Positions 11,179 through 49,963 of a DNA stretch of 64,000 nucleotides are shown piece by piece. The stretch covers positions 1,026,189 through 1,090,188 of the forward strand of contig OZ253667.1 of NCBI GenBank assembly GCA_965263235.1, in the 5' to 3' direction. A model generated the notes under the pieces. That model made no database searches. It saw only the letters and a list, made by a program, of their open reading frames with translations, and had not been told where the DNA came from. The stretch is from Pseudomonadales bacterium. Lineage in GTDB: Bacteria; Pseudomonadota; Gammaproteobacteria; Pseudomonadales; UBA7434. The translations under genes were made by a program, and so were the position numbers. The first letter of the stretch is position 1, and each line of letters begins with the position of its first letter.

Positions 11179-12366
11179 ATGAAAATTCGAACCCGCAATA
11201 CAGCGGTTGCGGCAGTTATTGAAAAGCTACATGAGAAAGTTTGCTATGAGGGCGGGGCTTATTTTGATGAGGCTCTTGAACTTGGTGTGAAAGGCTCAGA
11301 GCTCTCCTACAGTTTAGCTAGGAAAGTCCAGAATCAGCACCTGATGGTTTCCTTGCCTGTTTCTGTTATGCCTCAAATCGATCACTACAAATTTAGGCTA
11401 TCAAAAGATGGCTCTCTGAACGTTGATTCGATTGACTCTGATGCAACACCACTGCAGTCAGAAATAATGATGCTATCGCTTGAGCTGTTCAACTTGTTGG
11501 GCAAGGTTAGTCAGTTTGGTAAGGACTCCCCTCCAGTGCAGTTGAGTCAATTTCCCGAGTTACTAAATCTTCTGCTTACAGGAGGTAATGGCGCGGATTT
11601 GGCACAGCCGGCTGTCGAGGGGGACGAATCTCTGCGCATTGCGGCTTTCTGGCAGGCCCGGATGTTTTATGAGTTGAATTCTGAAGCGAATCGCAGCTTA
11701 CCTTTGTTAGAGTTTATGAATCACCATCTATTCGCCAATAACTTTAAGTATGACTTTAGGGGGGGTGGTAATCACATCCAATTGCACCATAAAAACCTTA
11801 TTGCAGGGCAAACATTTGCGCGCTATGAAATTATGGACGCGCTGCAGACTTTTGTGGTTTACGGCTTCGTGGATCAGAGTGCTTATTTTCTGCATTCGCA
11901 GAGTTTTGAGATGCCGTTAACGGATGGTCTTACACTTCAGGTTTCTTCACAGGCTGTTTGTAGTCATCAGAGTGATGTGCCTGATTGGAATCCCCCTCCA
12001 AAATTCCAAAACAGTTTCATGTATCGTTCTAAGCTACTGTATGGCTCATCGGGGCCCGTTATGCCCTATGCTATAGTTCCGCCGGGAAATCACATAGAGC
12101 CGTTTAAAGAAGCCACATTGGCCCAATTGGAAGAAATTGAGAGGCATTACGGGCTTGAAAAAGGCGCTATTAATAATGAAGAAGTTTATGATAGGTTTTT
12201 GAGGACCTTATATAGCGAAAACCTGGCATTCTACAAAAAATTGTTGGCAGAGCTGCGAACCATTGATTTCAAGTTGGTTGAGAAAAACTCCATGGTACCA
12301 AGCCAGTTTAAAGTTTTGATGGATAAACAGAGAGGTATATTAAGGGGGTTTGCAAAGTGCTTCTAG
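11179..12366 (+). CDS. Hypothetical protein with a SET-domain-like core (Rubisco-LSMT/SETD-like pattern)
   Basis: LPLLEFMNHHLFANN resembles the NHxxxPN-like block. IAGQTFARYEIMDALQTFVVYGFVDQ follows the pattern GEx(I/F)xxYGxxSNxxLLxxYGFV. There is no signal peptide. Confidence 0.5.
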   Translation: MKIRTRNTAVAAVIEKLHEKVCYEGGAYFDEALELGVKGSELSYSLARKVQNQHLMVSLPVSVMPQIDHYKFRLSKDGSLNVDSIDSDATPLQSEIMMLSLELFNLLGKVSQFGKDSPPVQLSQFPELLNLLLTGGNGADLAQPAVEGDESLRIAAFWQARMFYELNSEANRSLPLLEFMNHHLFANNFKYDFRGGGNHIQLHHKNLIAGQTFARYEIMDALQTFVVYGFVDQSAYFLHSQSFEMPLTDGLTLQVSSQAVCSHQSDVPDWNPPPKFQNSFMYRSKLLYGSSGPVMPYAIVPPGNHIEPFKEATLAQLEEIERHYGLEKGAINNEEVYDRFLRTLYSENLAFYKKLLAELRTIDFKLVEKNSMVPSQFKVLMDKQRGILRGFAKCF

Positions 12367-37747: not shown

Positions 37748-38050
37748 GGGATGTAGCGTTCTCTTTGTACCCTTCACACAGACAGGCAGTAGCGCACTAA
37801 GTAGTGCGCCTAGAAAAGAAAGAGATATTAAGATTATTAGTTAGATAGTTTAGAGTGGGATGTAGCGCTCACTTTGTAGAGAGCGGTAGCGCACTAAGTG
37901 GTGCGCCTAGAAAAGAAAGAGATATTAAGATTATTAGTTAGATAGTTTAGAGTGGGATGTAGCGCTCACTTTGTAGAGAGCGGTAGCGCACTAAGTGGTG
38001 CGCCTAGAAAAGAAAGAGATATTAAGATTATTAGTTAGATAGTTTAGAAC
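37748..38050 (+). repeat. Three tandem units (109, 97, 97 bp), each starting with a degenerate copy of the tRNA-Pro 5' part
   Basis: The units start GGGATGTAGCG at 37748, 37857 and 37954. Units 2 and 3 are identical. Each contains GGTAGCGCAC and an AT-rich spacer. The true tRNA follows at 38050. Confidence 0.9.
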
Positions 38051-38126
38051 GGGATGTAGCGCAGTCTGGTAGCGCACCACACTGGGGGTGTGGTGGTCGT
38101 CGGTTCAAATCCGGCCATCCCGACCA
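38050..38126 (+). tRNA. tRNA-Pro (anticodon GGG)
   Basis: CGGGATGTAGCGCAGTCTGGTAGCGCACCACACTGGGGGTGTGGTGGTCGTCGGTTCAAATCCGGCCATCCCGACCA. All four stems pair, and the anticodon loop is CTGGGGG. Confidence 0.85.
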
Positions 38127-38217: not shown

Positions 38218-39219
38218 CTAAGTGTGACTAAGTTGATCAATGGGGCTGGTCACACCTTTGCCGCCCCGGTTGACTACATGAGTGTAGATTTCGGTGGTGC
38301 TGATGTCGCTGTGTCCTAACAACTCTTGAATGGTGCGCAAATCATAGCCCGACTCCAATAGGTGAGTCGCAAAGCTATGCCTGAAACTGTGAATGCGTGG
38401 TAGCTTGTGAATCTTGGCTTCTTGCACTGCGCGTCTTACCTGGCGGCTCAGTGTGGTCGGGTGCATATGGTGGCGGCGCTTCACGCCACTGCGAGGGTCT
38501 TTGCCGATACTGCTTGAGGGAAATAGAAACTGCCAGGCCGTCTCGTACGGCGCTCGAGGGCTTTTGCGTGCGAGTGCATCAGGCAGGCAAACTTCGCCAT
38601 ACCCGTCGCGAATATCTTGGTCGTGGAGCAGCTTAACGCGCGCTACTTGCGCTTTCAATTCGGGGATTAATTTTTGCGGCAGCATGGTCGCGCGGTCCTT
38701 ATTTCCTTTGCCATTGCGGACGATAATATTATTGGAGCCAAAATCGACATCCTTGATGCGCAGTGAGAGAAGCTCTGCGAGCCTCAAGCCAGTGCCGTAA
38801 AGTAATTCGACCTGTAGCCGGTAGACGCCATTAAGGCCGTTGATAATAGCCGCTATCTCATCCCGACTATATATCACGGGAAGCCGCTTGGGCGCTCTCG
38901 CGCCTTGATAGCCAAGTTCACCCACCTCAATTCCTAAAAAGCGCTTGTACACGTATACGAGCGCATTGAGTGCGGTGCGTTGTGTATTGACCGAGCAAAA
39001 GCGTTGATTGGATAGATAACTTAAAAAATTTTCGATTTCAGTGGGGCCTAATGATTTGGGGTGTTGCTTACCGTGAAAGTTAATAAAGCGGCGGATCCAG
39101 TGAATATAGGTTTGCTCGGTGCGGTACGCGAGCCCCTTTTGCCGCATGTGCAGGCGTAGCTGATCGAGAAAGCGTGGCGATTGCGGTGGAATGGTGGTGC
39201 GGATTTTTATTTGTTCCAT
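38218..39219 (-). CDS. intI: Integron integrase
   Basis: It is a tyrosine recombinase with the R..HxxR..Y boxes (TGLRLAELLSLR, HSFRHSFATHLL, TEIYTHV). It also has the IntI-specific insertion LPDALARKSPRAPYETAWQFLFPSS. The start was set at MEQIKIR. Confidence 0.9.
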   Translation of the reverse strand: MEQIKIRTTIPPQSPRFLDQLRLHMRQKGLAYRTEQTYIHWIRRFINFHGKQHPKSLGPTEIENFLSYLSNQRFCSVNTQRTALNALVYVYKRFLGIEVGELGYQGARAPKRLPVIYSRDEIAAIINGLNGVYRLQVELLYGTGLRLAELLSLRIKDVDFGSNNIIVRNGKGNKDRATMLPQKLIPELKAQVARVKLLHDQDIRDGYGEVCLPDALARKSPRAPYETAWQFLFPSSSIGKDPRSGVKRRHHMHPTTLSRQVRRAVQEAKIHKLPRIHSFRHSFATHLLESGYDLRTIQELLGHSDISTTEIYTHVVNRGGKGVTSPIDQLSHT

Positions 39220-39479
39220 GGGATGCACTCGTATACCTGTATGTATATACAGTATCAATTTTAAGTGCACTCTGTCAAACTTCAGGTGATCAATGGATAG
39301 GTGTTCACTATTTCCAGGGTTGCAGGGCTAAGGTATTGAAAAATAAGATGGTGGTATCGTGTACAACAGCCATTGATTTTCCCCGCCTGGCAGATTCCTG
39401 CTCGCTTTAACCTTTTTTGATATCAATCATTCATTGCTTAACCTACTGAACAATAGACTCTTTTTTTGATGTCTAAGTA

Positions 39480-39545
39480 TGTTTAAATTTGGATACACAG
39501 CATGGTGGATATGAGCCACTTGCTATTGAATAAACTGTTAGCCAT
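39480..39545 (+). other. attI region with the recombination point in GTTAGCC (G39537/T39538)
   Basis: GTTAGCCAT (39537-39545) is the exact reverse complement of ATGGCTAAC (40036-44), which ends the first cassette. The left extent of attI is not determined. Confidence 0.6.
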
Positions 39546-40043: not shown

Positions 40044-40057
40044 CAAGTGACTATGGT
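40036..40057 (+). other. 5' (R''/L'') part of the attC of cassette 1, interrupted by an IS
   Basis: ATGGCTAACAAG has the same R''-AAG organisation as the other attC sites (GCATAACAAG, CCTAGCAAG, GCTAGCAAG). Confidence 0.55.
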
Positions 40058-40072
40058 GTCAAACTCTAATTA

Positions 40073-40459
<387 letters not shown>

Positions 40460-40481
40460 TTAACGAAGAGGAGATCTCAAC

Positions 40482-40748
40482 ATGAAGAAGAAACGATTTA
40501 CCGAAGAACAGATTATTGGTGCGCTGAAGGCACACGAAGCTGGCGAGAAGGTCGCTGATATTTGTCGACGAATCGGCGTGGCGCAGGGTACGTTCTACAA
40601 TTGGCGAGCCAAATTTGGTGGGATGGAAGTGAACGAAGCTAGGCGGCTGCGTGAATTGGAATCAGAGAACACCAAGCTCAAAAAGCTGTTAGCCGATAAG
40701 CTCCTTGAAGTTGAAGCGATGAAGGATGTGTTGTCAAAAAAGTGGTGA
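40482..40748 (+). CDS. IS3-family transposase OrfA (HTH)
   Basis: MKKKRFTEEQIIGALKAHEAG..GTFYNWRAKFGG, with a leucine-zipper-like tail. It ends just after A AAA AAG (40736-40742). Confidence 0.9.
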   Translation: MKKKRFTEEQIIGALKAHEAGEKVADICRRIGVAQGTFYNWRAKFGGMEVNEARRLRELESENTKLKKLLADKLLEVEAMKDVLSKKW

Positions 40749-41560
40749 AACCTGCGAGCAAGAAGTTGGCGATCTCGCATATGAAGACAACACATCGTGT
40801 GAGTGAACGAACAGCTTGTCAGCTCGTAGGTTTGAGCCGAAGCGGTTATCGCTATCAAGCACAACCCAAAGGTGATGAATCACTGACGAAAAGGCTCAGT
40901 GAGCTGGCCACGCAATATCCTCGCTACGGCTACCTGATGTTGTACAGTCTACTCAAACAGGAAGGGTTAGTCGTTAACAAGAAACGCACCTATCGCTTGT
41001 ATACAGCAATGGGCTTGCAGGTTCGCACGAAGAAACGTAAGAAGCTCACAAGACCACGACAACCGCTAGCAGTCCCGATTGGCAAAGATATTCGTTGGTC
41101 GATGGACTTTGTCTCCGATCAATTGAGTAATGGCAGACGCTTTCGAGTGCTCAATGTGGTCGATGACCATACACGCGAGCTGGTCGGCCAGCTCACAGCG
41201 TTTTCGATATCCGGCCAGCAAGTCGCGGGCTTCTTAAATCAACTGTTAGCAACCCGTAACAAGCCCGATCAAGTGATCTGCGATAACGGCACGGAGTTTA
41301 CGAGTAAGGCGATGTTCTTTTGGCAGAAGGATGCAGGCATAAAGCTTGGCTTTATTCAGCCAGGCAAACCGACACAGAATGCGTTTGTAGAAAGTTTAAA
41401 TGGCAAGTTCCGAAACGAATGTTTAAACCAGCATTGGTTCCGCAGCATTGATGAAGCGAGACACATCATTAACGACTGGCGAGAGCACTACAATCATAAA
41501 AGGCCGCATAGCGCATTGAACTATATGACGCCAGTGGCCTTTGCGAATCGAGCAGCATAG
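40742..41560 (+). CDS. IS3-family transposase OrfB (DDE), expressed by a -1 frameshift from OrfA
   Basis: It lies in the -1 frame relative to orfA. The rve-type core is WSMDFV..VVDDHTRE..DNGTEFTS..ESLNGKFRNECL. Confidence 0.9.
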   Translation: MVKPASKKLAISHMKTTHRVSERTACQLVGLSRSGYRYQAQPKGDESLTKRLSELATQYPRYGYLMLYSLLKQEGLVVNKKRTYRLYTAMGLQVRTKKRKKLTRPRQPLAVPIGKDIRWSMDFVSDQLSNGRRFRVLNVVDDHTRELVGQLTAFSISGQQVAGFLNQLLATRNKPDQVICDNGTEFTSKAMFFWQKDAGIKLGFIQPGKPTQNAFVESLNGKFRNECLNQHWFRSIDEARHIINDWREHYNHKRPHSALNYMTPVAFANRAA

Positions 41561-41607
41561 AATGAAAATCTCATCCAAGCTGTGGTGTTAATCGTGGGGA
41601 AAGGTCA

Positions 41608-42218
41608 GCAAGGACGTTGCCCACGCCTTTAGCGCTTAATAGCAGATCACGCTTTTGTCGCCACTCAGCGACACTGTTAACCAATTTGTCGAGTTGTTTA
41701 TCGATGGTGAGCAGTTCTTTTTTGATGGCTTTGAGAATGTTTTGAATGGGGTTGTGCACAGCTTTTGGCATGCGTTTTAAACGATTCTTTTGCATGGTGC
41801 TCATTTCGAGGCATTGACTGCGCACGACGAGCAAATCGCTAATCGCTCTTAATTTCTCGGGTTTTATTGAGGAAAGCCTGGGCTTCATCGTCTCGCCATA
41901 GTGAGCGATGTCCTGCGCATCGAGCTTGTCTGTTTTTGCCATGCGGCCTGCTGATTTAGCAAAGTTGCGCACGTTGCCTGGATTACAGATGACGATGGGC
42001 AGCCCCGCTTTGTGAGCGGCGATGACGAAGTCGAGTTCTAATCGTCCGGTGGACTCGATCAATACACGAGTGGGTTTGAGAGGTTGAAGTTGTTTAACGG
42101 CGTCTTTGATGCCGTCTTTATCATTGGAGGCACTGAAAAACTGGCCAGTGGGTCTCACGTAAATATCGAGTTGTTTTGTGCTGGTGTCGATACCGACATT
42201 GATCTCTTGCGTATTCAT
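41608..42218 (-). pseudogene. IS110-family transposase, N-terminal fragment
   Basis: MNTQEINVGIDTSTKQLDIYV..VLIESTGRLE.. matches the DEDD N-terminal domain. It is truncated by the IS3 insertion. Confidence 0.85.
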
Positions 42219-42489
42219 GGGATAAGCTATCTCCGCCTTGCTATTCGGGCTCGAGGCCCACATGACTATTCGAGTTATGCCTGGTGAGTGTTTGTCACGT
42301 TCACACTAGCGGGTTTAATACACCTGGCCAGCATCGAACTATGACAAACAAGGCCTTGGGTGGCCGCCCAAGGTGGGCCTCAATTTACCCGTTAGTGGAA
42401 AGGATTAAAATAATGAATATAGAGAGAATTGAACCATACAAGGTCATCAAGCCGGACAGTTTTTCCGTTGCTTCTTTTGTGTTTACCCG

Positions 42490-42545: not shown

Positions 42546-43952
42546 CAAAATAATGGATTGACCATCAATGTCTGAACAAGAAATTGAATACGAAGAAGAG
42601 GACTGGGCTGACGAGCCAGTTGATCCGCAGCAACTGGAAGAAGCTCAAAATGAACTTAGAGCACGTTGTGATGCGGCGGGAATAACTGTAGAAGAAACGG
42701 AAGGGATGGAAGAAGGCGACACAGCCTTGGAATTGTCATTTCCATGCGGGAGAAACAAAAGAACACACATCCTTTGGGATTACGATGATATTAAGAGAAT
42801 ATTAGCCGTACCTTTTGAAAAATATACATTTATTGATGGATATAGGGCTATTTGCTCTTACTCAGATAACACCATCGAGGCGCAGATAAGGCCGATGGGT
42901 CCTTTTAGTCCTCGCTTGGCCATTCGTCGACTTTTTAGCGATAGATTTGATGAAGATGATTTACGAGCAGAAAACTACAGCATCGATTTGACTCCAGATA
43001 AAGGCGTAGATGGTCCACAAGTCTCTGTTGGCCCTTCAACTCAAGATTTTCGGGCAATAAACCGCGGACCATCTCTCGGTAATCTCAGTTTAAAACTAGT
43101 GAATACTGGTCTATCACATCATGATCAATCTCGCTCTTTGCTGGAAAAAATATCCAATTCATTGTTCTTTCAAATTGAGCTGCTCGCAGGACTCCCGCTC
43201 GGATTGTTCAGGCAAAGACGGCACCCAAGGCCTATTCGCAGAAAAAATCAGAGGGCATCGATAGAAGACCTGCAATACCCAAAAAATGAATACGATGAAG
43301 CGCCAATCTCACTGTATTGGTATGGCATCAGCGCCATGGGAATGCCCCTCCTACAATTTCTCGCTTTTTACCAAGTGATCGAGTTCTATTTCCCGACCTA
43401 TTTTCAAGCTGAAGCACGACGGAAAATTCGAGCAATACTAAAAAACCCAACATTTCGAAACGATAGAGATGCCGACCTAGGCAAGATACTAAGCGCAATA
43501 CAACTCGGCAAGTCAGGCAGTTTAGGTGATGAAAGGTCGCAATTGCGGGCCACAATAGCGGAATGTGTAGATCCTGATTCCTTAAGGTCATTCTTTTCGG
43601 ATACGGAGGAGAGAACAGGTTTCTTTTCATCAAAAACCAAGGGGATAACAGATCACAAGATTCCGCTTGCTAATCCCAATGTCGACCTTAGGAACGATGT
43701 TGCTGATAGGATTTACGACATTAGGTGCAAGATCGTACATACCAAATCTGATAGCAGAAATGGAGAAATCGAGCTTCTTCTACCATTCTCAAAAGAGGCG
43801 GAACAGCTGTATCACGATATAGAACTAGTGCAATATATCGCGCAGCAAGTACTCATATCAGCAAGTGCACCACTGTAAAAAGCTAGCAAGTACATTAAAT
43901 ACGCTCCCTTTGGTCGCCGGACCTCGCTACCGCTCGGCCGTTTATGTAAGCG
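42538..43952 (+). mobile_element. Integron gene cassette (one ORF)
   Basis: It is bounded by G/TTAGCTTT and by an attC ending G/TTAGGTGC. The start and the R'' end are complementary (8 of 9). Confidence 0.75.
42568..43878 (+). CDS. Cassette protein, 436 aa, acidic N-terminus; the C-terminal region carries a HEPN-like Rx4H motif
   Basis: DRIYDIRCKIVHTK (R-x4-H) lies in a predicted helical C-terminal domain. No other motif was recognised. Confidence 0.6.
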   Translation: MSEQEIEYEEEDWADEPVDPQQLEEAQNELRARCDAAGITVEETEGMEEGDTALELSFPCGRNKRTHILWDYDDIKRILAVPFEKYTFIDGYRAICSYSDNTIEAQIRPMGPFSPRLAIRRLFSDRFDEDDLRAENYSIDLTPDKGVDGPQVSVGPSTQDFRAINRGPSLGNLSLKLVNTGLSHHDQSRSLLEKISNSLFFQIELLAGLPLGLFRQRRHPRPIRRKNQRASIEDLQYPKNEYDEAPISLYWYGISAMGMPLLQFLAFYQVIEFYFPTYFQAEARRKIRAILKNPTFRNDRDADLGKILSAIQLGKSGSLGDERSQLRATIAECVDPDSLRSFFSDTEERTGFFSSKTKGITDHKIPLANPNVDLRNDVADRIYDIRCKIVHTKSDSRNGEIELLLPFSKEAEQLYHDIELVQYIAQQVLISASAPL

Positions 43953-43960
43953 TTAGGTGC
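43879..43960 (+). other. attC site
   Basis: R'' AAAGCTAGC-AAG; L'' TACATTAAATACG pairs with L' CCGTTTATGTA; R' GTTAGGTGC. Confidence 0.75.
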
Positions 43961-43979
43961 AACTCACTCGAATCTCATC

Positions 43980-45272
43980 ATGAAAGTTACTATCTACACC
44001 CTGTGGAGGTCATTCGCCATTTTTACGGTACTCCTGTTCATCGTCATGGGGTATTGCGCTGTTCTTGTGGCTAAACCGTTTATCAGTGCAAAAATTAAAA
44101 ACATCTATATATCTAGGAGCTTAAAGGCTTTGGTAACGTTCCTTGGCCCTCCTTACATCAAGATAATTCAGATACTGAGTACAAGGGCAGATATATTCTC
44201 TGATGAATTTATAAGAATATGTGGCCAATTGAGAGTAAATGTACCTGGCCCTTCTTTTTCAAGAATAAAGAGTAGCATACCTAGTTCGCTTGCTGATGCT
44301 ATACGTACTAAGCAAATTAGCATCGAAGAAGAGCCAATTGCTGGAGGGAGTGTTGCGGTAGTCTATAAGGGCATCGATATAGGCACCTCGAATCCTTTAG
44401 CAATCAAAATCATCCGACCAAACGCAAAACTACTTATTACAACTGATATTAAGATTCTAGTTTTTTTCTCTTTCTATTTGAGGCTAATACCGTGGCTCAA
44501 GCCGATTCCCATGCAGTCCGCGTTGAGGTTCGTTGGGAATGCATTGATTGAGCAAACAAATTTAGAGCTAGAGCGCAGAAATCTAAATAGATTTACGGAG
44601 CTTACGACCGAGAACAATAAAATCGTGTTTCCTATTGCTTGGCCAGACTATTCAAATGAAAACACATTGGTAATGGGTTACTTAAGTAACTTTAACGAAG
44701 AGTGGCTATACAATATGACTGCTGAACAAGGTTCAGTCATTTCTGACTCCTTAGTTCATATGCTATTTAATATGGTCTTTGTCGAGGGGTTTATACATTC
44801 AGATTTACACCCAGGTAATATTGGCGTAGATCAACGGGGATTCATAAGAATAGTAGATACAGGTTTGGTTGCACAACTAAACTCAATGGATAGGAAGCAG
44901 TTTGCAAGATTCTTTTTTGGGATGGTAAGCAACAATGGACTAATGAGCGCGAAAGTTTTAAATGAAACAGCAGAAAAATCGCTAAAAATATTTGATAAAC
45001 AAATGTTCGATATAGAAGTTTCGAGTATCATTGCCAAGTATTCTGGCTTGAGTGCTGCGGATTATGATGTTGCCCTTTTCGTGTCAGAAATATTTCAAGT
45101 GCAAAGAAAACATGGGTTAGTGGCTACACCAACATTTCTTACAGTAATTCTTGCTTTTGTGTCTCTTGAGGGAATAATAAAAATAATTTGCCCAGCTTAT
45201 GATTTCCAAGAAAAGGCGAAACAGTATATTTTTAGGTATTCCCAAGCAGTTGGGCTATTTGAAGCAACGTAG
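43980..45272 (+). CDS. ABC1/UbiB (AarF) family atypical protein kinase with an N-terminal TM segment
   Basis: FLGPPYIKIIQILSTRADIFSDEFI..LRVNVP..EEEPIAGGSVAVVYKG..AIKIIRP..FIHSDLHPGNIGV is the classic ABC1 domain pattern. Confidence 0.8.
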   Translation: MKVTIYTLWRSFAIFTVLLFIVMGYCAVLVAKPFISAKIKNIYISRSLKALVTFLGPPYIKIIQILSTRADIFSDEFIRICGQLRVNVPGPSFSRIKSSIPSSLADAIRTKQISIEEEPIAGGSVAVVYKGIDIGTSNPLAIKIIRPNAKLLITTDIKILVFFSFYLRLIPWLKPIPMQSALRFVGNALIEQTNLELERRNLNRFTELTTENNKIVFPIAWPDYSNENTLVMGYLSNFNEEWLYNMTAEQGSVISDSLVHMLFNMVFVEGFIHSDLHPGNIGVDQRGFIRIVDTGLVAQLNSMDRKQFARFFFGMVSNNGLMSAKVLNETAEKSLKIFDKQMFDIEVSSIIAKYSGLSAADYDVALFVSEIFQVQRKHGLVATPTFLTVILAFVSLEGIIKIICPAYDFQEKAKQYIFRYSQAVGLFEAT

Positions 45273-45313
45273 GTTCTTCTCCAGATCCTACCAATATTTC
45301 TCAGGAGTTTAAA

Positions 45314-46105
45314 ATGGCAAAGTTTGAAGACTCGATTTTTTTCAATGAGCTTAATCGGTTTGTGGGTTCTGGAGGAGAACTAGTATTAAAGAAATCACAG
45401 AAAGAAGATGGAGATACCAAAATCGATGTCGGAGATATTCTAATTGGTATCGGTGTGACCCACCTTGTAGAAAGTCTTTCTAGGCCGCCAGGGTTGGATT
45501 CCTTTCGTTCTTTCGACGTAAATTCCTTGGCATATGACAGAAAAATGGCTGCGCGCGCTTTTAGAGTAGTCGCGAAAGAGCAAACTGACGAAGGGTTTGA
45601 TTTTCGATTCGAGCCATTGTCTCCAAACGAATATAGCGAAGCGTTGTCTGAGGTATCCGAGGGCACCGTTAATATTGACCCAAAGACTATACCAGACGGT
45701 ACAGTAATCCTGAGCTTTACATCAGAAAAACCTGAATACACGCTCAAATCAAATGAATCTTCACCGAGAGCTAATTGGGAAGCACTAGCAAAGGGGGAGC
45801 GTCATTGGAATGTAGGAATTGGCTCTGAAGATGATTTTTGGGCAGCGAGTTTCCCGTCAGATGAAATGGAGTTTCTGAAAGAGTTTTCGGCAGCAGCAAA
45901 ATTGGGTCGAATTCGATTTGGCTTATCAATGCTCAAAGGAAGTGTTGGAGCGATAAAACTAGAAAAAGTTGAGACTGAACATCCGACTGGAAGGATTACA
46001 AAACATGATTTTTGCTTAAATGGCAACGCTGCTGGTACGAAGAACTTAGATTCTCCATTTCCTATAGGACTGCGAACCGAAATCACTTTTTTTCCAGTCG
46101 AATAA
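45314..46105 (+). CDS. Hypothetical protein (263 aa), second gene of the two-gene cassette
   Basis: The ORF has an AGGAG Shine-Dalgarno site 8 nt upstream. No recognisable motif was found. Confidence 0.6.
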   Translation: MAKFEDSIFFNELNRFVGSGGELVLKKSQKEDGDTKIDVGDILIGIGVTHLVESLSRPPGLDSFRSFDVNSLAYDRKMAARAFRVVAKEQTDEGFDFRFEPLSPNEYSEALSEVSEGTVNIDPKTIPDGTVILSFTSEKPEYTLKSNESSPRANWEALAKGERHWNVGIGSEDDFWAASFPSDEMEFLKEFSAAAKLGRIRFGLSMLKGSVGAIKLEKVETEHPTGRITKHDFCLNGNAAGTKNLDSPFPIGLRTEITFFPVE

Positions 46106-46108
46106 ATT

Positions 46109-46206
46109 GCACCTAGCAAGGCAAATGCACTCGGACTGCCAAAAGCTGCGCCGCTCGTTCCTCGCTCTGCAGCTTTTGGCAGCCGGTGATTTGCGGCGTT
46201 ATGCAT
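46109..46206 (+). other. attC site
   Basis: R'' GCACCTAGC-AAG; L'' GCAAATGC pairs with L' GATTTGC; the internal inverted repeat is CTGCCAAAAGCTGC/GCAGCTTTTGGCAG; R' GTTATGCAT. Confidence 0.8.
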
Positions 46207-46675
46207 CAGGAAAAATATGAGTATTAGCCCAATTTTGGAGAAAGACTTCTACCACGACGGTAGAGGCCCAGAGCTTCAAAAGGTACAGTGGAAATCGAAT
46301 GGGGTAGTACTTGTTGGTTTTGAGTATTTCAATCCGGACGATGAATACACTCCGGAAAATTTAAAACATTTGGCTCTCGACAGTGTTGAGGCATACAGCA
46401 TGTCCTCGGAGGAAGTACACGGTAATATTCTGGCAGGAGGTGACAATAAGGCAGCTATCTTTGAAGTCAAAAACTCAGAGTGGCTAGCCTCATTTAATCA
46501 ATATCACCTATCAGAGTGTAGGCACTACCAAATCATGTTTTACGATGAAATCTATGATGTAATCTGCAAGAGCATTAAAGCAGGTTCAGGTCGGCTAAAT
46601 GCATAACAAGGCGCTGTTATCGCAGCCTTCGGCTGCTGGGACGCACCACTGCGTGGCGCGCCCTAAAGCTTGGCG
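46199..46675 (+). mobile_element. Integron gene cassette (one ORF)
   Basis: GTTATGCAT (46198-46206; the cassette begins at T46199) is the perfect complement of ATGCATAAC (46599-46607). Confidence 0.8.
46217..46606 (+). CDS. Cassette hypothetical protein (129 aa)
   Basis: The ORF fills the cassette, and its stop codon lies inside R''. Confidence 0.6.
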   Translation: MSISPILEKDFYHDGRGPELQKVQWKSNGVVLVGFEYFNPDDEYTPENLKHLALDSVEAYSMSSEEVHGNILAGGDNKAAIFEVKNSEWLASFNQYHLSECRHYQIMFYDEIYDVICKSIKAGSGRLNA

Positions 46676-47054: not shown

Positions 47055-47624
47055 ATGAGTCTCCAATTGAGAGCCTACCCTAATACATCATCACAAGTGA
47101 GCAAGCCATTAAAAGAAGGCGTTATCGACGCAACCAGAAAATGGCTTAGCGATTTTGTTATTGAGCATAACCTCTGTCCGTTCGCCAGGCGTGAGTTGGC
47201 TAACGAAACGATTCGTTTTGTGGAAAGTGACGCAAGCGATATTGAAAGGCTGCTTGGCCAGTTGCATCAGGAGTTGATGTTGCTTGAGCAAGATGCGACA
47301 GTCGAAACGACCCTGCTAATTCATCCCAATGTTCTTAGTGACTTCCAGGACTATCTGGACTTTCTTGATATCGCCAATGGCTTATTGATTGAACTTGATT
47401 TGGAAGGCATTTTTCAAGTGGCTAGCTTCCACCCGGACTATCAATTCGCCGATACCAAATTCTCCGATCCAGAGAACCTTACCAACCGTTCGCCTTATCC
47501 CATGTTGCATTTGCTTAGAGAAGCCAGTGTTGAAAAAGCAGTTGCCAGCCACCCCGACCCCGAAAGTATTCCCGAACGGAATATCGCCTTGATGAAGCAG
47601 CTTTTTGTAGAAGGGAAATTGTAG
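47055..47624 (+). CDS. DUF1415 family protein
   Basis: NLCPFARRE..TTLLIHPNVLSDFQDYLDFLD..FQVASFHPDYQFA..NRSPYPMLHLLREASVEKAV is the pattern I remember for DUF1415. Confidence 0.75.
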   Translation: MSLQLRAYPNTSSQVSKPLKEGVIDATRKWLSDFVIEHNLCPFARRELANETIRFVESDASDIERLLGQLHQELMLLEQDATVETTLLIHPNVLSDFQDYLDFLDIANGLLIELDLEGIFQVASFHPDYQFADTKFSDPENLTNRSPYPMLHLLREASVEKAVASHPDPESIPERNIALMKQLFVEGKL

Positions 47625-47942
47625 AAGGAGTTCCGGCGATCAGTTCGGTTTGAAGGGATAGAAGTTTCTTGCCAACGCTTTCATCAGCTCAGGGAAAGAG
47701 CCCCATTATCTGGGGAAATATTTTTAAGTAATTGATTTGCTCTGGCCGCTTATCTTAAGATTCTTCGACGCGTATGATTATTGTCTTGAAGGCATTTGAT
47801 AAGTATAAGAGTATCGCAGGGCAAGGACATGAATTTAAAGGAGGTTTATTTGTATTATCGTTTTTATCAGCGAACTCTACATAAGGGGCCATTTGGCCTT
47901 TTAATTAACTATTAGATTTCAGTCAAATTTAGAGTAATCATT

Positions 47943-48878
47943 ATGAATAAGGTAGCAATTGTTCAAGAAGCTCCGATAGTACTAGATAAAGAAAAGACTA
48001 TTGTGCAGGCTGTGGGGTTGGTGGAAAAGGCCGCTGACAATGGTGCTCAACTTATAGTATTTCCCGAAGCCTTTATATCAGGATATCCCGCTTGGATATG
48101 GCGCCTTCGTCCTGGTGGTGATTGGGGTGCAAATGAAGAGCTCCATGCAAAGTTGCTTGAAAATTCAATAGATCTAGAAGTTAACGAACTTGCGCCATTA
48201 TGCAAAATTGCAAAAACTAGAAAGATCACAATCGTTTGCGGCATCAATGAAAGAGATGGGAAGTTAAGTAGGGCAACTATATATAATTCGGTGGTAGTTA
48301 TAGGTGACGACGGGACAATTATAAACCGCCACAGAAAGCTAATGCCGACCAACCCTGAAAGAATGGTTTGGGGTTTCGGTGATGGTTCTGGCTTAAAAGT
48401 AGTAGACACGCCGGTCGGTAGAATCGGTTCTCTAATTTGCTGGGAAAATTATATGCCCCTGGCAAGATATTCTCTTTATTCGCAAGGTGTCGAGATTTAC
48501 ATTGCACCAACATATGATAGTGGTGATGGTTGGATAGGCACTATGCAGCATATTGCAAGGGAAGGCCGATGTTGGGTGGTCTGTGCCGGGGTGCCTCTAA
48601 CGCGCGATGATATTCCAGCTGATTTTCCAAATAAAGAGCTTCTGTATCCTGATTCAGAAGATTGGATTAATGCAGGTGATTCAGTCGTGGTCGCACCTGG
48701 TGGTGAGATAGTTGCTGGCCCAATGAGAAAAGAAAAGGGCTTGCTATTTGCTGAAATAGATTCTAGTCGTGTCGCTGAGTCAAAAAGGGCTCTAGATGTA
48801 GCTGGGCATTATTCAAGGCCTGACGTGTTTACATTAAACGTAAATACAGAGAAGCAAAGTCCAGTGAAATTTAAGTAG
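47943..48878 (+). CDS. Nitrilase / carbon-nitrogen hydrolase family
   Basis: The E-K-C triad contexts are VFPEAFISGYP, HRKLMPT and LICWENYMP. Confidence 0.85.
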   Translation: MNKVAIVQEAPIVLDKEKTIVQAVGLVEKAADNGAQLIVFPEAFISGYPAWIWRLRPGGDWGANEELHAKLLENSIDLEVNELAPLCKIAKTRKITIVCGINERDGKLSRATIYNSVVVIGDDGTIINRHRKLMPTNPERMVWGFGDGSGLKVVDTPVGRIGSLICWENYMPLARYSLYSQGVEIYIAPTYDSGDGWIGTMQHIAREGRCWVVCAGVPLTRDDIPADFPNKELLYPDSEDWINAGDSVVVAPGGEIVAGPMRKEKGLLFAEIDSSRVAESKRALDVAGHYSRPDVFTLNVNTEKQSPVKFK

Positions 48879-49145
48879 AAGGTAATGAAATCTAACAACT
48901 ACATTCAGCCGGCCACTGTAGCGGTGTGATGCTTATGGGAATTCTGGGAAGTCCATTGTGCTTCAACATTGTGTCTAAACAGAACCCTTTCTAAACCTCG
49001 CAGGCGAAGCTTATAATCCGTCAAAGAGCTCGGGTTAGCTCTTTAACTGAAATTCGGACTTCCTGAGTCAGTTTGCTCAACTCATTACGCCCGACCGCTT
49101 TTTACCCTGACCTTATATTTTAGTATTAACATTGCAAAGTAAATT

Positions 49146-49388
49146 ATGATTACGATTGAAAAAGATTTAAACGCAGAAGAGATTTTTATTCACGCCGCGC
49201 CAGAGGGCCTCAGAGAGTTTGCCAGAACGCTTTGGGAAATTGCAGATAAAAGTGAAACCAAGGGCAAGCATAAAAAGCAGCTAACGACTACAGGTGACAC
49301 TGGCTCTGATTTATTTGCCCAGCTCCAGGGCGAGCCTGGTAAACATAGTGTTATCAAAAAGCTCACAATTTCTAGTCGCGTTGATTAG
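49146..49388 (+). CDS. Small hypothetical protein
   Basis: An 80-aa ORF with no motif. Confidence 0.4.
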   Translation: MITIEKDLNAEEIFIHAAPEGLREFARTLWEIADKSETKGKHKKQLTTTGDTGSDLFAQLQGEPGKHSVIKKLTISSRVD

Positions 49389-49447
49389 TAAACCTATAAG
49401 CTTGCTTTCTACTGGTTTTAAATAGAGAGAAACTACAGGGGTGCTTC

Positions 49448-49963
49448 ATGAAAGACTTGAAAAAAATAGATTTAACTTATTTGGACGCTGCATCGAGTTG
49501 CATGCAAATGACCGTCAATATTAAAGCGCCACTTGAGTTTGCTTTTAGGATCTTTGAGGATGCTGATGCATGGGTGCATTGCTTTCAAGCCATCACGCGT
49601 GTTGACTGGACCAGCGAGCCGCCTTACAAAAAAGGCACTACAAGGACGATTGACCTTAAATTGCCTGGCCAGCCGTTGCTAACAATCGACGAAGAATTTG
49701 TCGAGTGGGAACAAAACAAACGTTTTGCGTTTTATTTCCAGCGTTCAAGTAGGCGAGTCTTTAACGCGATGATTGAGGACTATAAATTTACCGAGGGCGC
49801 TAACGGGTCGACTGATATTGTGTGGGACCTGGCCTATGAAGGGGCAGGTATATACAGGTTTATTTTTAAGCTTATTGCGGGACAGGCAAAAAAAGATAAT
49901 CAGAAGGCGCTGAATAACTTTCGAGACTACATCGAAGAGCAGTACAAAAAGAGTTTGGTTTAG
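49448..49963 (+). CDS. SRPBCC (START/polyketide-cyclase-like) family protein
   Basis: The size and the pattern (..FRIFEDADAWVHCFQAI..W..) were judged by eye only. Confidence 0.55.
   Translation: MKDLKKIDLTYLDAASSCMQMTVNIKAPLEFAFRIFEDADAWVHCFQAITRVDWTSEPPYKKGTTRTIDLKLPGQPLLTIDEEFVEWEQNKRFAFYFQRSSRRVFNAMIEDYKFTEGANGSTDIVWDLAYEGAGIYRFIFKLIAGQAKKDNQKALNNFRDYIEEQYKKSLV

Follow-up and report, generated by a model that had tools for sequence, protein, structure and literature searches.

There is no agreement yet on what proteins of the UbiB/COQ8 family do, and a ligand or partner has been defined for very few of them. Relatives of the protein considered here that are described in the literature serve in resistance to macrolides or in the avoidance of self-killing by tiancimycin; those that have been characterized bind lipophilic natural products or counteract them. 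MABP-1 (Rv3197), an ATPase of the ABC1 family, binds erythromycin and provides resistance to macrolides (PMC8696161). In the tiancimycin cluster, the genes tnmR2 and tnmR3 encode AarF/ABC1/UbiB proteins; tnmR3 is conserved in anthraquinone-fused enediyne clusters, and its deletion brings about a premature death tied to formation of the product (PMC9464397). TnmR3 was read as an orphan sensor kinase acting with the regulator TnmR1, a kinase role that was speculated and not validated (PMC9464397). Furthermore, enediyne resistance elements are widespread outside producers (PMC9854587). In this study, a stretch of 64,000 nucleotides (nt) from a Pseudomonadales bacterium (contig OZ253667.1; referred to below as the window) was analyzed around an integron gene cassette at positions 43953-46198, which carries two open reading frames (ORFs): ORF1, encoding a UbiB/ABC1-type protein, and ORF2, encoding a member of a rare protein family.

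The segment is a single genuine integron cassette of ordinary architecture and not a fusion; what is new is its cargo, namely a diverged accessory UbiB-type ATPase together with a rare, novel candidate partner, in a minimal mobile two-gene unit that would lend itself to direct expression and testing. The reading that we tentatively prefer, with confidence that stops short of even, is that ORF1 and ORF2 may form an accessory pair, transcribed together, with a lipophilic small molecule as its target, plausibly in tolerance to a natural-product toxin. It is an argument from guilt by association that draws on biosynthetic-cluster contexts, VOC partners, the MABP-1 and TnmR3 precedents and the mobile nature of the cargo. 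The two genes would be transcribed together from the integron or from an upstream promoter; at the membrane, ATP would be used by the ABC1 protein, while binding or modification of a lipophilic compound would fall to the beta protein. Together they would most likely allow a toxic natural product of other microbes to be tolerated or processed.

The initial annotation had described one cassette with two co-oriented ORFs 41 nt apart and no attC site between them, and this description held throughout. The left boundary lies between a G at 43952 and TTAGGTGCA, the TT of which starts at 43953, and the right boundary lies between a G at 46198 and TTATGC. As a cassette is a circular permutation of one attC, its first bases should pair with its own R'' box. 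The start of the cassette is complementary to its R'' box, TGCACCTAGC (46108-46117), at 8 of 9 positions. The corresponding values are 7-8 of 9 for each of the four cassettes of the array and 3-6 of 9 for all non-cognate pairs. The start and R'' therefore come from the same attC, which speaks against two cassettes having simply fused, as the two ends would then derive from different attCs. The bottom strand of the attC of the cassette folds with -28.8 kcal/mol (z = -4.4), and none of 200 shuffled sequences folded equally well. The attC of the preceding cassette has an L''/L' pair of TACATTAAATACG / CGTTTATGTA and a weak fold (-7.4 kcal/mol with DNA parameters).

The interior of the cassette was scanned for further attC sites by pattern and folding, a crude procedure, used in place of an attC covariance model, that missed the true attCs because the R' and R'' boxes of these are off consensus. 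Within these limits the stretch between the two genes showed no degenerate attC. Folding across 45230-45320 was not significant (z = -0.6 and -1.1), and no terminator-like site was found in the spacer. The sole candidate inside the cassette, at 45190-45255 (GCCCAGC...GTTGGGC), folds like its shuffles (z = -0.5), encodes the conserved C-terminal residues P405, F409 and Q410 of ORF1, and has boxes that match neither end of the cassette; it was rejected. A sigma-70-like match at 45203-45230, in the 3' end of ORF1, was discounted, such matches being fewer than in shuffled sequences.

The cassette shares with those of sedentary chromosomal integrons a nearby intI gene, bounding attC sites with recombination points between G and TT, a start complementary to its own R'', ORFs oriented with the array, and a G+C content at third codon positions (GC3) below that of the host genes. 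It differs in holding two ORFs where one is usual, and in an R' box (GTTATGC) and an R'' box ending in AGC that depart from the consensus GTTRRRY / RYYYAAC. GC3 is similar in the two ORFs (0.37 in ORF1 and 0.34 in ORF2), in keeping with one cassette and not a fusion; cassette genes range over 0.27-0.43, against roughly 0.5-0.59 in flanking host genes. The attC (window positions 46104-46198) is 85% identical to a site on a plasmid of Desulfosarcina sp. BuS5 (NZ_CP087953.1:57627-57713) and 80% identical to an attC-like site on a Pantoea plasmid, a likeness that suggests an attC type common to distant taxa. The Desulfosarcina plasmid site sits in an array of small genes that includes a RelE/HTH pair and a PEP-CTERM protein.

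ORF1 is a true UbiB/ABC1-fold protein and is distinct from housekeeping UbiB. The ABC1 motifs quoted for it in the initial annotation are real and align with those of the family, and it matches PF03109 (ABC1) at 2.8e-34 with 118.8 bits (gathering score 22.9). The AlphaFold2 model of ORF1 (pLDDT 91.2) is closest in Foldseek to COQ8A/ADCK3 (E 9e-18, TM 0.68-0.80; 4ped, 5i35, 7udq), followed by the macrolide-binding ATPases MSMEG_1954 and Rv3197 of mycobacteria (TM 0.5-0.75); the best sequence match in the PDB is the Rv3197 structure 5yjz (E 1.7e-8). The nucleotide-binding and catalytic residues K143, E198, H273, D275, N280 and D293 are kept and, together with G295, are invariant across three alignments (A2, A3 and A5). 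In the KxGQ motif K61 and Q64 are retained, and G63 is replaced by Ile (K-I-I-Q). The best profile match is TIGR01982 (UbiB; 5.6e-58), yet its 196.6 bits lie well under the equivalog cut-off of 487.55; the scores against PRK04750 (114.4, cut-off 667) and the MABP-1 model NF050082 (34.8 bits, curated cut-off 800) are also below threshold. Among 5.8 billion clusters and a plasmid collection, no relative was more than 32% identical to ORF1, the nearest reaching 28-32%.

In comparison with COQ8A/ADCK3 and bacterial UbiB, ORF1 has in common PF03109, the fold, an N-terminal KxGQ-type extension and the Lys, Glu, HxD...N and DxG residues. It differs from them in its altered KxGQ motif and Ala-rich loop, in a hydrophobic N-terminal helix as a putative anchor, and in its location in a mobile cassette rather than in a ubiquinone operon. 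It also lacks the C-terminal extension with membrane helices of UbiB proteins of ~550 aa (amino acids); relatives of 553-658 aa run 100-150 residues longer, and in the alignment ORF1 ends where the short clade described below ends. MABP-1 and MSMEG_1954 share the fold and, at 435-452 aa, are near ORF1 in size; they differ in that the score of ORF1 against NF050082 is so far below its cut-off and in that no ORF2-like partner is known for the mycobacterial proteins.

The N-terminal transmembrane helix proposed for ORF1 in the initial annotation corresponds to a strongly hydrophobic segment: residues 12-30 average 2.69 on the Kyte-Doolittle scale (19-residue window), where the median of the clade is 1.87, and the model places a helix at residues 2-30. 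As read from the sequence, basic residues are more numerous after the helix than before it, and we therefore infer a cytoplasmic kinase domain. The public annotation (P0055) starts at a TTG codon downstream; its product of 380 aa, without the hydrophobic helix, matches 88% of the length of ORF1 with 100% identity. No Shine-Dalgarno site precedes the ATG at 43980. Homology of relatives to ORF1 reaches back to residue 10-30 (R10 in the alignments) and so extends upstream of the TTG, which favors the 430-aa form; the deposited model is probably truncated.

The initial annotation had reasoned from the premise that UbiB/ABC1 proteins are housekeeping proteins, which does not apply to the group in which ORF1 falls. 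This short ABC1 clade comprises about 60 clusters of 424-477 aa, without a C-terminal membrane tail, from Myxococcota, Actinomycetota and others. Ten of its loci were surveyed for context. Polyketide synthase (PKS) or enediyne-type clusters surround the ABC1 gene at half of them (L003, L016, L020, L023 and L024), three on plasmids or megaplasmids, and none were present at L017, L019, L021 and the P0058 locus. The clusters contain a PKS of 1900-2000 aa together with a 4HBT thioesterase, DUF1702/UnbL, UnbV_ASPIC/VCBS and HEAT_2 genes. Homologous PKSs (27-34% identity), 4HBT thioesterases (39-47%) and ABC1 are common to L003, L016 and L020 (Salinispora tropica). A HEAT_2 gene is common to L003 and L020, and L016 additionally has DUF1702 and UnbV_ASPIC genes, making up an enediyne-type cassette. 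A megaplasmid of Streptomyces clavuligerus carries a 1984-aa PKS, a thioesterase and a short ABC1 protein. The best overall relative of ORF1 (31.9% identity) is an ABC1 protein on a mobilizable plasmid of Serratia proteamaculans, in a cluster with DUF1702, VCBS-repeat, RnfD-like, ketosynthase/acyl carrier protein and deoxysugar genes and a VOC protein. The survey thus reveals the short ABC1 clade as a recurrent part of enediyne-type and polyketide clusters, also on plasmids. As a further observation, the short (about 430-aa) ABC1 proteins beside enediyne-type genes belong to unrelated bacteria (L003, L016, L020, L023/L025 and L024).

These contexts resemble those of the TnmR2/TnmR3-type proteins, in that enediyne-type PKS, thioesterase and UnbL/UnbV genes recur next to members of the clade of ORF1; the difference is that there is no PKS cluster near the cassette in the window. 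Going by genomic context only, ORF1 and TnmR3 may belong to the same clade. MABP-1 is an earlier case of an ABC1-family protein that acts in polyketide tolerance.

ORF2, for which the initial annotation had noted a ribosome-binding site of its own and no recognizable motif, indeed has an AGGAG site and gave no match in Pfam, NCBIfam, PADLOC or PDB sequences. Its homologs number 54 clusters (46-61% identity) among 5.8 billion, and an exhaustive profile search of 1.84 billion representatives returned only 64 proteins, of which about a dozen represent close clusters of full length. The family conserves the motifs NRFVGSGGE, DVGDxLIGIG, RHWNVG, DDFW, FGLS and FPIGLRTEI. The AlphaFold2 model (pLDDT 95.9) consists mostly of long beta strands, and Foldseek searches of the PDB and the viral collection BFVD gave no structure at E 1e-3 or better; weaker matches, taken only as a hint, were to beta-barrels that bind or cyclize lipophilic substrates (TM at most 0.43). 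No relatives of ORF2 were found on viral contigs or plasmids. ORF2 begins with MAKFEDSIFF right at the conserved domain and ends with it, with no signal peptide and no PF07589 match. We propose that ORF2 is a soluble protein, mostly beta in structure and not exported by a signal, and that its translation starts from a ribosome-binding site of its own.

More remotely, ORF2 is related over its full length to PEP-CTERM/IPTL-CTERM proteins (P0221, P0224, P0207 and others), with 24% identity over 263 residues, a pairwise E of 2e-12 and a profile E of 2.5e-14. Unlike these, ORF2 has neither a signal peptide nor a C-terminal sorting tag, and the core ORF2 family adds the conserved polar residues H50, E53, R163 and H231. 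The domain appears to constitute an undescribed family. Among P0206-P0209, P0212 and P0221-P0228 it is found in exported proteins that have signal peptides, a Gly/Asp-rich insertion (LSGDDPxTPGFDPDG...DPDLDGP) and PEP-CTERM or IPTL-CTERM anchors, as well as in fusions to unknown N-terminal regions of 300 aa or C-terminal regions of 220 aa.

The neighbors of the ORF2 family were surveyed at 13 independent loci, with the window counted as one. A short-clade ABC1 gene adjoins the ORF2 homolog at two of them, the window and L003, a 3.7-Mb genome with a PKS cluster. In L003 the ORF2 homolog (49% identity) is followed after 163 nt by an ABC1 gene whose product is 28% identical to ORF1; the gene order is opposite to that in the cassette, and the pair adjoins a 1992-aa PKS. 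Because both families are rare, this second adjacency is unlikely to have arisen by chance (estimated here at below 1e-3 per genome), and it suggests functional coupling of ORF1 and ORF2. The co-occurrence elsewhere by which the initial annotation had proposed to check the pairing is thus found. A VOC (glyoxalase/bleomycin-resistance) gene lies directly downstream of the ORF2 homolog at two further loci, L004 and L007, between which identity is 49% for the ORF2 homologs and 44% for the VOC proteins. This parallel divergence of both genes across two phyla indicates that the ORF2-VOC pair is old and conserved. No conserved neighbor was seen at the remaining ORF2-family loci.

Several observations weigh against a functional partnership. 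There is no ABC1 neighbor at 11 of the 13 ORF2-family loci and no ORF2 neighbor at 8 of the 10 short-ABC1 loci; the two families are thus clearly not bound to occur together. Neither of the ORF2 proteins with an ABC1 neighbor is the closest relative of the other (ranks 26 and 13), and they form no subclade, and ORF1 and the L003 ABC1 protein are not sisters, so neither protein gives evidence of a co-inherited pair lineage. The ORF2 homolog is the sole gene of a 1.27-kb unit in L018 (5802-6883), where it travels alone. Remote relatives of ORF2 are exported, with signal peptides and PEP-CTERM/IPTL-CTERM tags (PF07589 was matched in them), and some close homologs carry signal peptides or extensions; exported relatives sit badly with a general cytoplasmic partnership of the family. 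No ligand, pocket or catalytic site was identified. Moreover, of 70 positions conserved in the clade ORF1 departs at 23, among them the KxGQ motif (G63I) and the Ala-rich loop (Q127V/H129Y), and to judge from these substitutions its activity may be altered. Finally, insertions of IS110 and IS3 elements between attI and the cassette may block Pc transcription of the downstream cassettes. The mobile two-component module built around an atypical kinase that the initial annotation had envisaged is partly supported: it is one two-gene cassette with a pairing that recurs in L003, and the association is by no means obligate.

The alternative that survives best is that the two genes are functionally unrelated passengers, captured from a contiguous donor stretch or joined in a very old fusion whose traces have gone; we regard this as a serious possibility, if somewhat doubtful. 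It accords with an ORF2 family that is overwhelmingly solitary and without a neighbor conserved over the 13 loci, with its single-gene unit in L018, with the separate Shine-Dalgarno site of ORF2, and with the failure of ORF2 and its L003 homolog to form a distinct subclade. It does not account for the second, independent adjacency in L003, and both the absence of an attC remnant and the origin of start and R'' from the same attC stand against it. If it were correct, the cassette would be an ordinary two-ORF cassette. If, instead, an accessory pair active in tolerance is the right reading, chromosomal integrons would circulate resistance functions derived from producer clusters.

A narrower form of the tolerance reading, which is unlikely as it stands, is that enediyne/polyyne-type PKS clusters are the origin of the cassette, which would have left them as a portable immunity module and in which the membrane-anchored ATPase and the beta-fold protein would jointly guard a non-producer against a lipophilic DNA-damaging or membrane-active product. 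It would represent a new resistance mechanism and a tractable two-gene bacterial UbiB model with a defined partner.

It is improbable that the two proteins are a signaling pair, with the ABC1 protein as a protein kinase or sensor and ORF2 as its substrate or effector. The catalytic loop of ORF1 is intact, and LuxR-type regulators lie beside ABC1 in the Serratia cluster and in L003 (GerE/LuxR in the latter). However, ORF2 has no DNA-binding or receiver-like feature and matches no regulator family, and the characterized members of the UbiB family are known for ATPase rather than protein-kinase activity. The interpretation of TnmR3 as an orphan sensor kinase with a regulator points the same way as the intact loop, but its kinase role is itself only speculation (PMC9464397).

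An anti-phage defense or toxin-antitoxin module, the analogy drawn in the initial annotation, found no support and is very improbable. The array is mobile, the neighboring cassette is DzbB-like, and ORF1 gives weak matches to the PADLOC kinase models PD-T4-6 and mad6 (at best 1e-6); these matches, however, span 30-90 residues of a generic kinase catalytic region, and ORF2 has none. Both proteins are far larger than typical toxin-antitoxin components, no relatives were found on viral contigs and no ORF2 on plasmids, and the contexts of the relatives are biosynthetic clusters, defense-like neighbors being seen among the relatives' loci only at L005 and the other contexts not being defense islands. 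That ORF1 is a spare housekeeping UbiB for ubiquinone biosynthesis is scarcely credible: TIGR01982 is its best profile match, but the score is far below the cut-off, the C-terminal extension and membrane helices are missing, identity to any protein is at most 32%, and ORF1 is not in a ubiE-ubiJ-ubiB context.

The integron that contains the cassette is chromosomal. Its integrase gene, intI, is encoded on the minus strand at 38218-39270 (TIGR02249, 4.4e-125, 417 bits against a cut-off of 265), just downstream of pheS-pheT-ihfA, a MerR-family gene and a tRNA-Pro(GGG) gene. The attI site (GTTAGCC, 39536-39542) lies ahead of the first cassette, and the array extends rightwards with a 160-aa cassette, a 436-aa cassette, the two-gene cassette and a 129-aa cassette, the last of which terminates at GTTAATC near 46675. 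The features are listed in Table 1.

Table 1. Coordinates of the two-gene cassette, its parts and associated features (window positions unless a locus is named).
Feature	Position	Strand	Remarks
Gene cassette	43953-46198	+	2246 nt; two ORFs and one attC
attC of preceding cassette	43884-43958	+	R' box GTTAGGT at 43952-43958 contains the left recombination point (between G and TT)
ORF1	43980-45272	+	430 aa; short-clade UbiB/ABC1 atypical kinase-like ATPase
Hydrophobic N-terminal helix, putative membrane anchor	44013-44072	+	ORF1 codons 12-31
Alternative TTG start	44130-44132	+	ORF1 codon 51; public annotation; AGGAG upstream at 44115-44119
Spacer between ORF1 and ORF2	45273-45313	+	41 nt; AGGAG at 45303-45307, 6 nt ahead of the ORF2 ATG
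ORF2	45314-46105	+	263 aa; rare uncharacterized mostly-beta family
attC of the cassette	46108-46204	+	R'' ACCTAGC at 46111-46117; R' GTTATGC at 46198-46204
tRNA-Pro(GGG)	38050-38126		Neighbor of intI
IS110 transposase remnants	40073-40429 and 41571-42263	-	
IS3-family element	orfA about 40483-40750; orfB 40742-41560		Splits the IS110 element
ORF2-family and VOC gene pair	L004:6001-7213; L007:151-1269		Metagenome-assembled genomes of Proteobacteria (L004) and Bacteroidetes (L007); VOC proteins of 124-134 aa

Several observations concern the surroundings of the cassette. The IS110-family insertion sequence (40050-42420) is inserted in the attC of the first, 160-aa cassette. The preceding cassette (42568-43878) encodes a 436-aa protein that resembles DzbB of the Dazbog defense system (PADLOC 9.3e-13) and weakly resembles MauJ (Pfam 2e-5, below cut-off); no DzbA partner was found within that cassette. 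Past the last clear attC (47055-49963) there is a DUF1415 gene with a host-like GC3 of 0.50, a nitrilase gene (47943-48878) with a low GC3 of 0.34, and an SRPBCC/Polyketide_cyc2 gene (49448-49963). Behind the nitrilase gene, the stretch 48880-48950 with an R''-like ATCTAACAAC was considered as a further attC and rejected, its fold not being attC-like (z = +0.9).

The L018 locus mentioned above (JGI 3300086628, contig Ga0683547_0000019) has a repetitive structure of its own. Between positions 826 and 11601 it contains six direct repeats of ~191 nt, 78-92% identical and spaced 1.27-2.7 kb apart, each of which contains the 3' half of tRNA-Met, and an intact tRNA-Met gene lies at 11528-11601 on the minus strand. 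The units hold one or two small ORFs each, without Pfam matches. The arrangement looks as though tiny integrative units had accumulated one after another at a tRNA gene, giving a cassette-like array that is not an attC integron.

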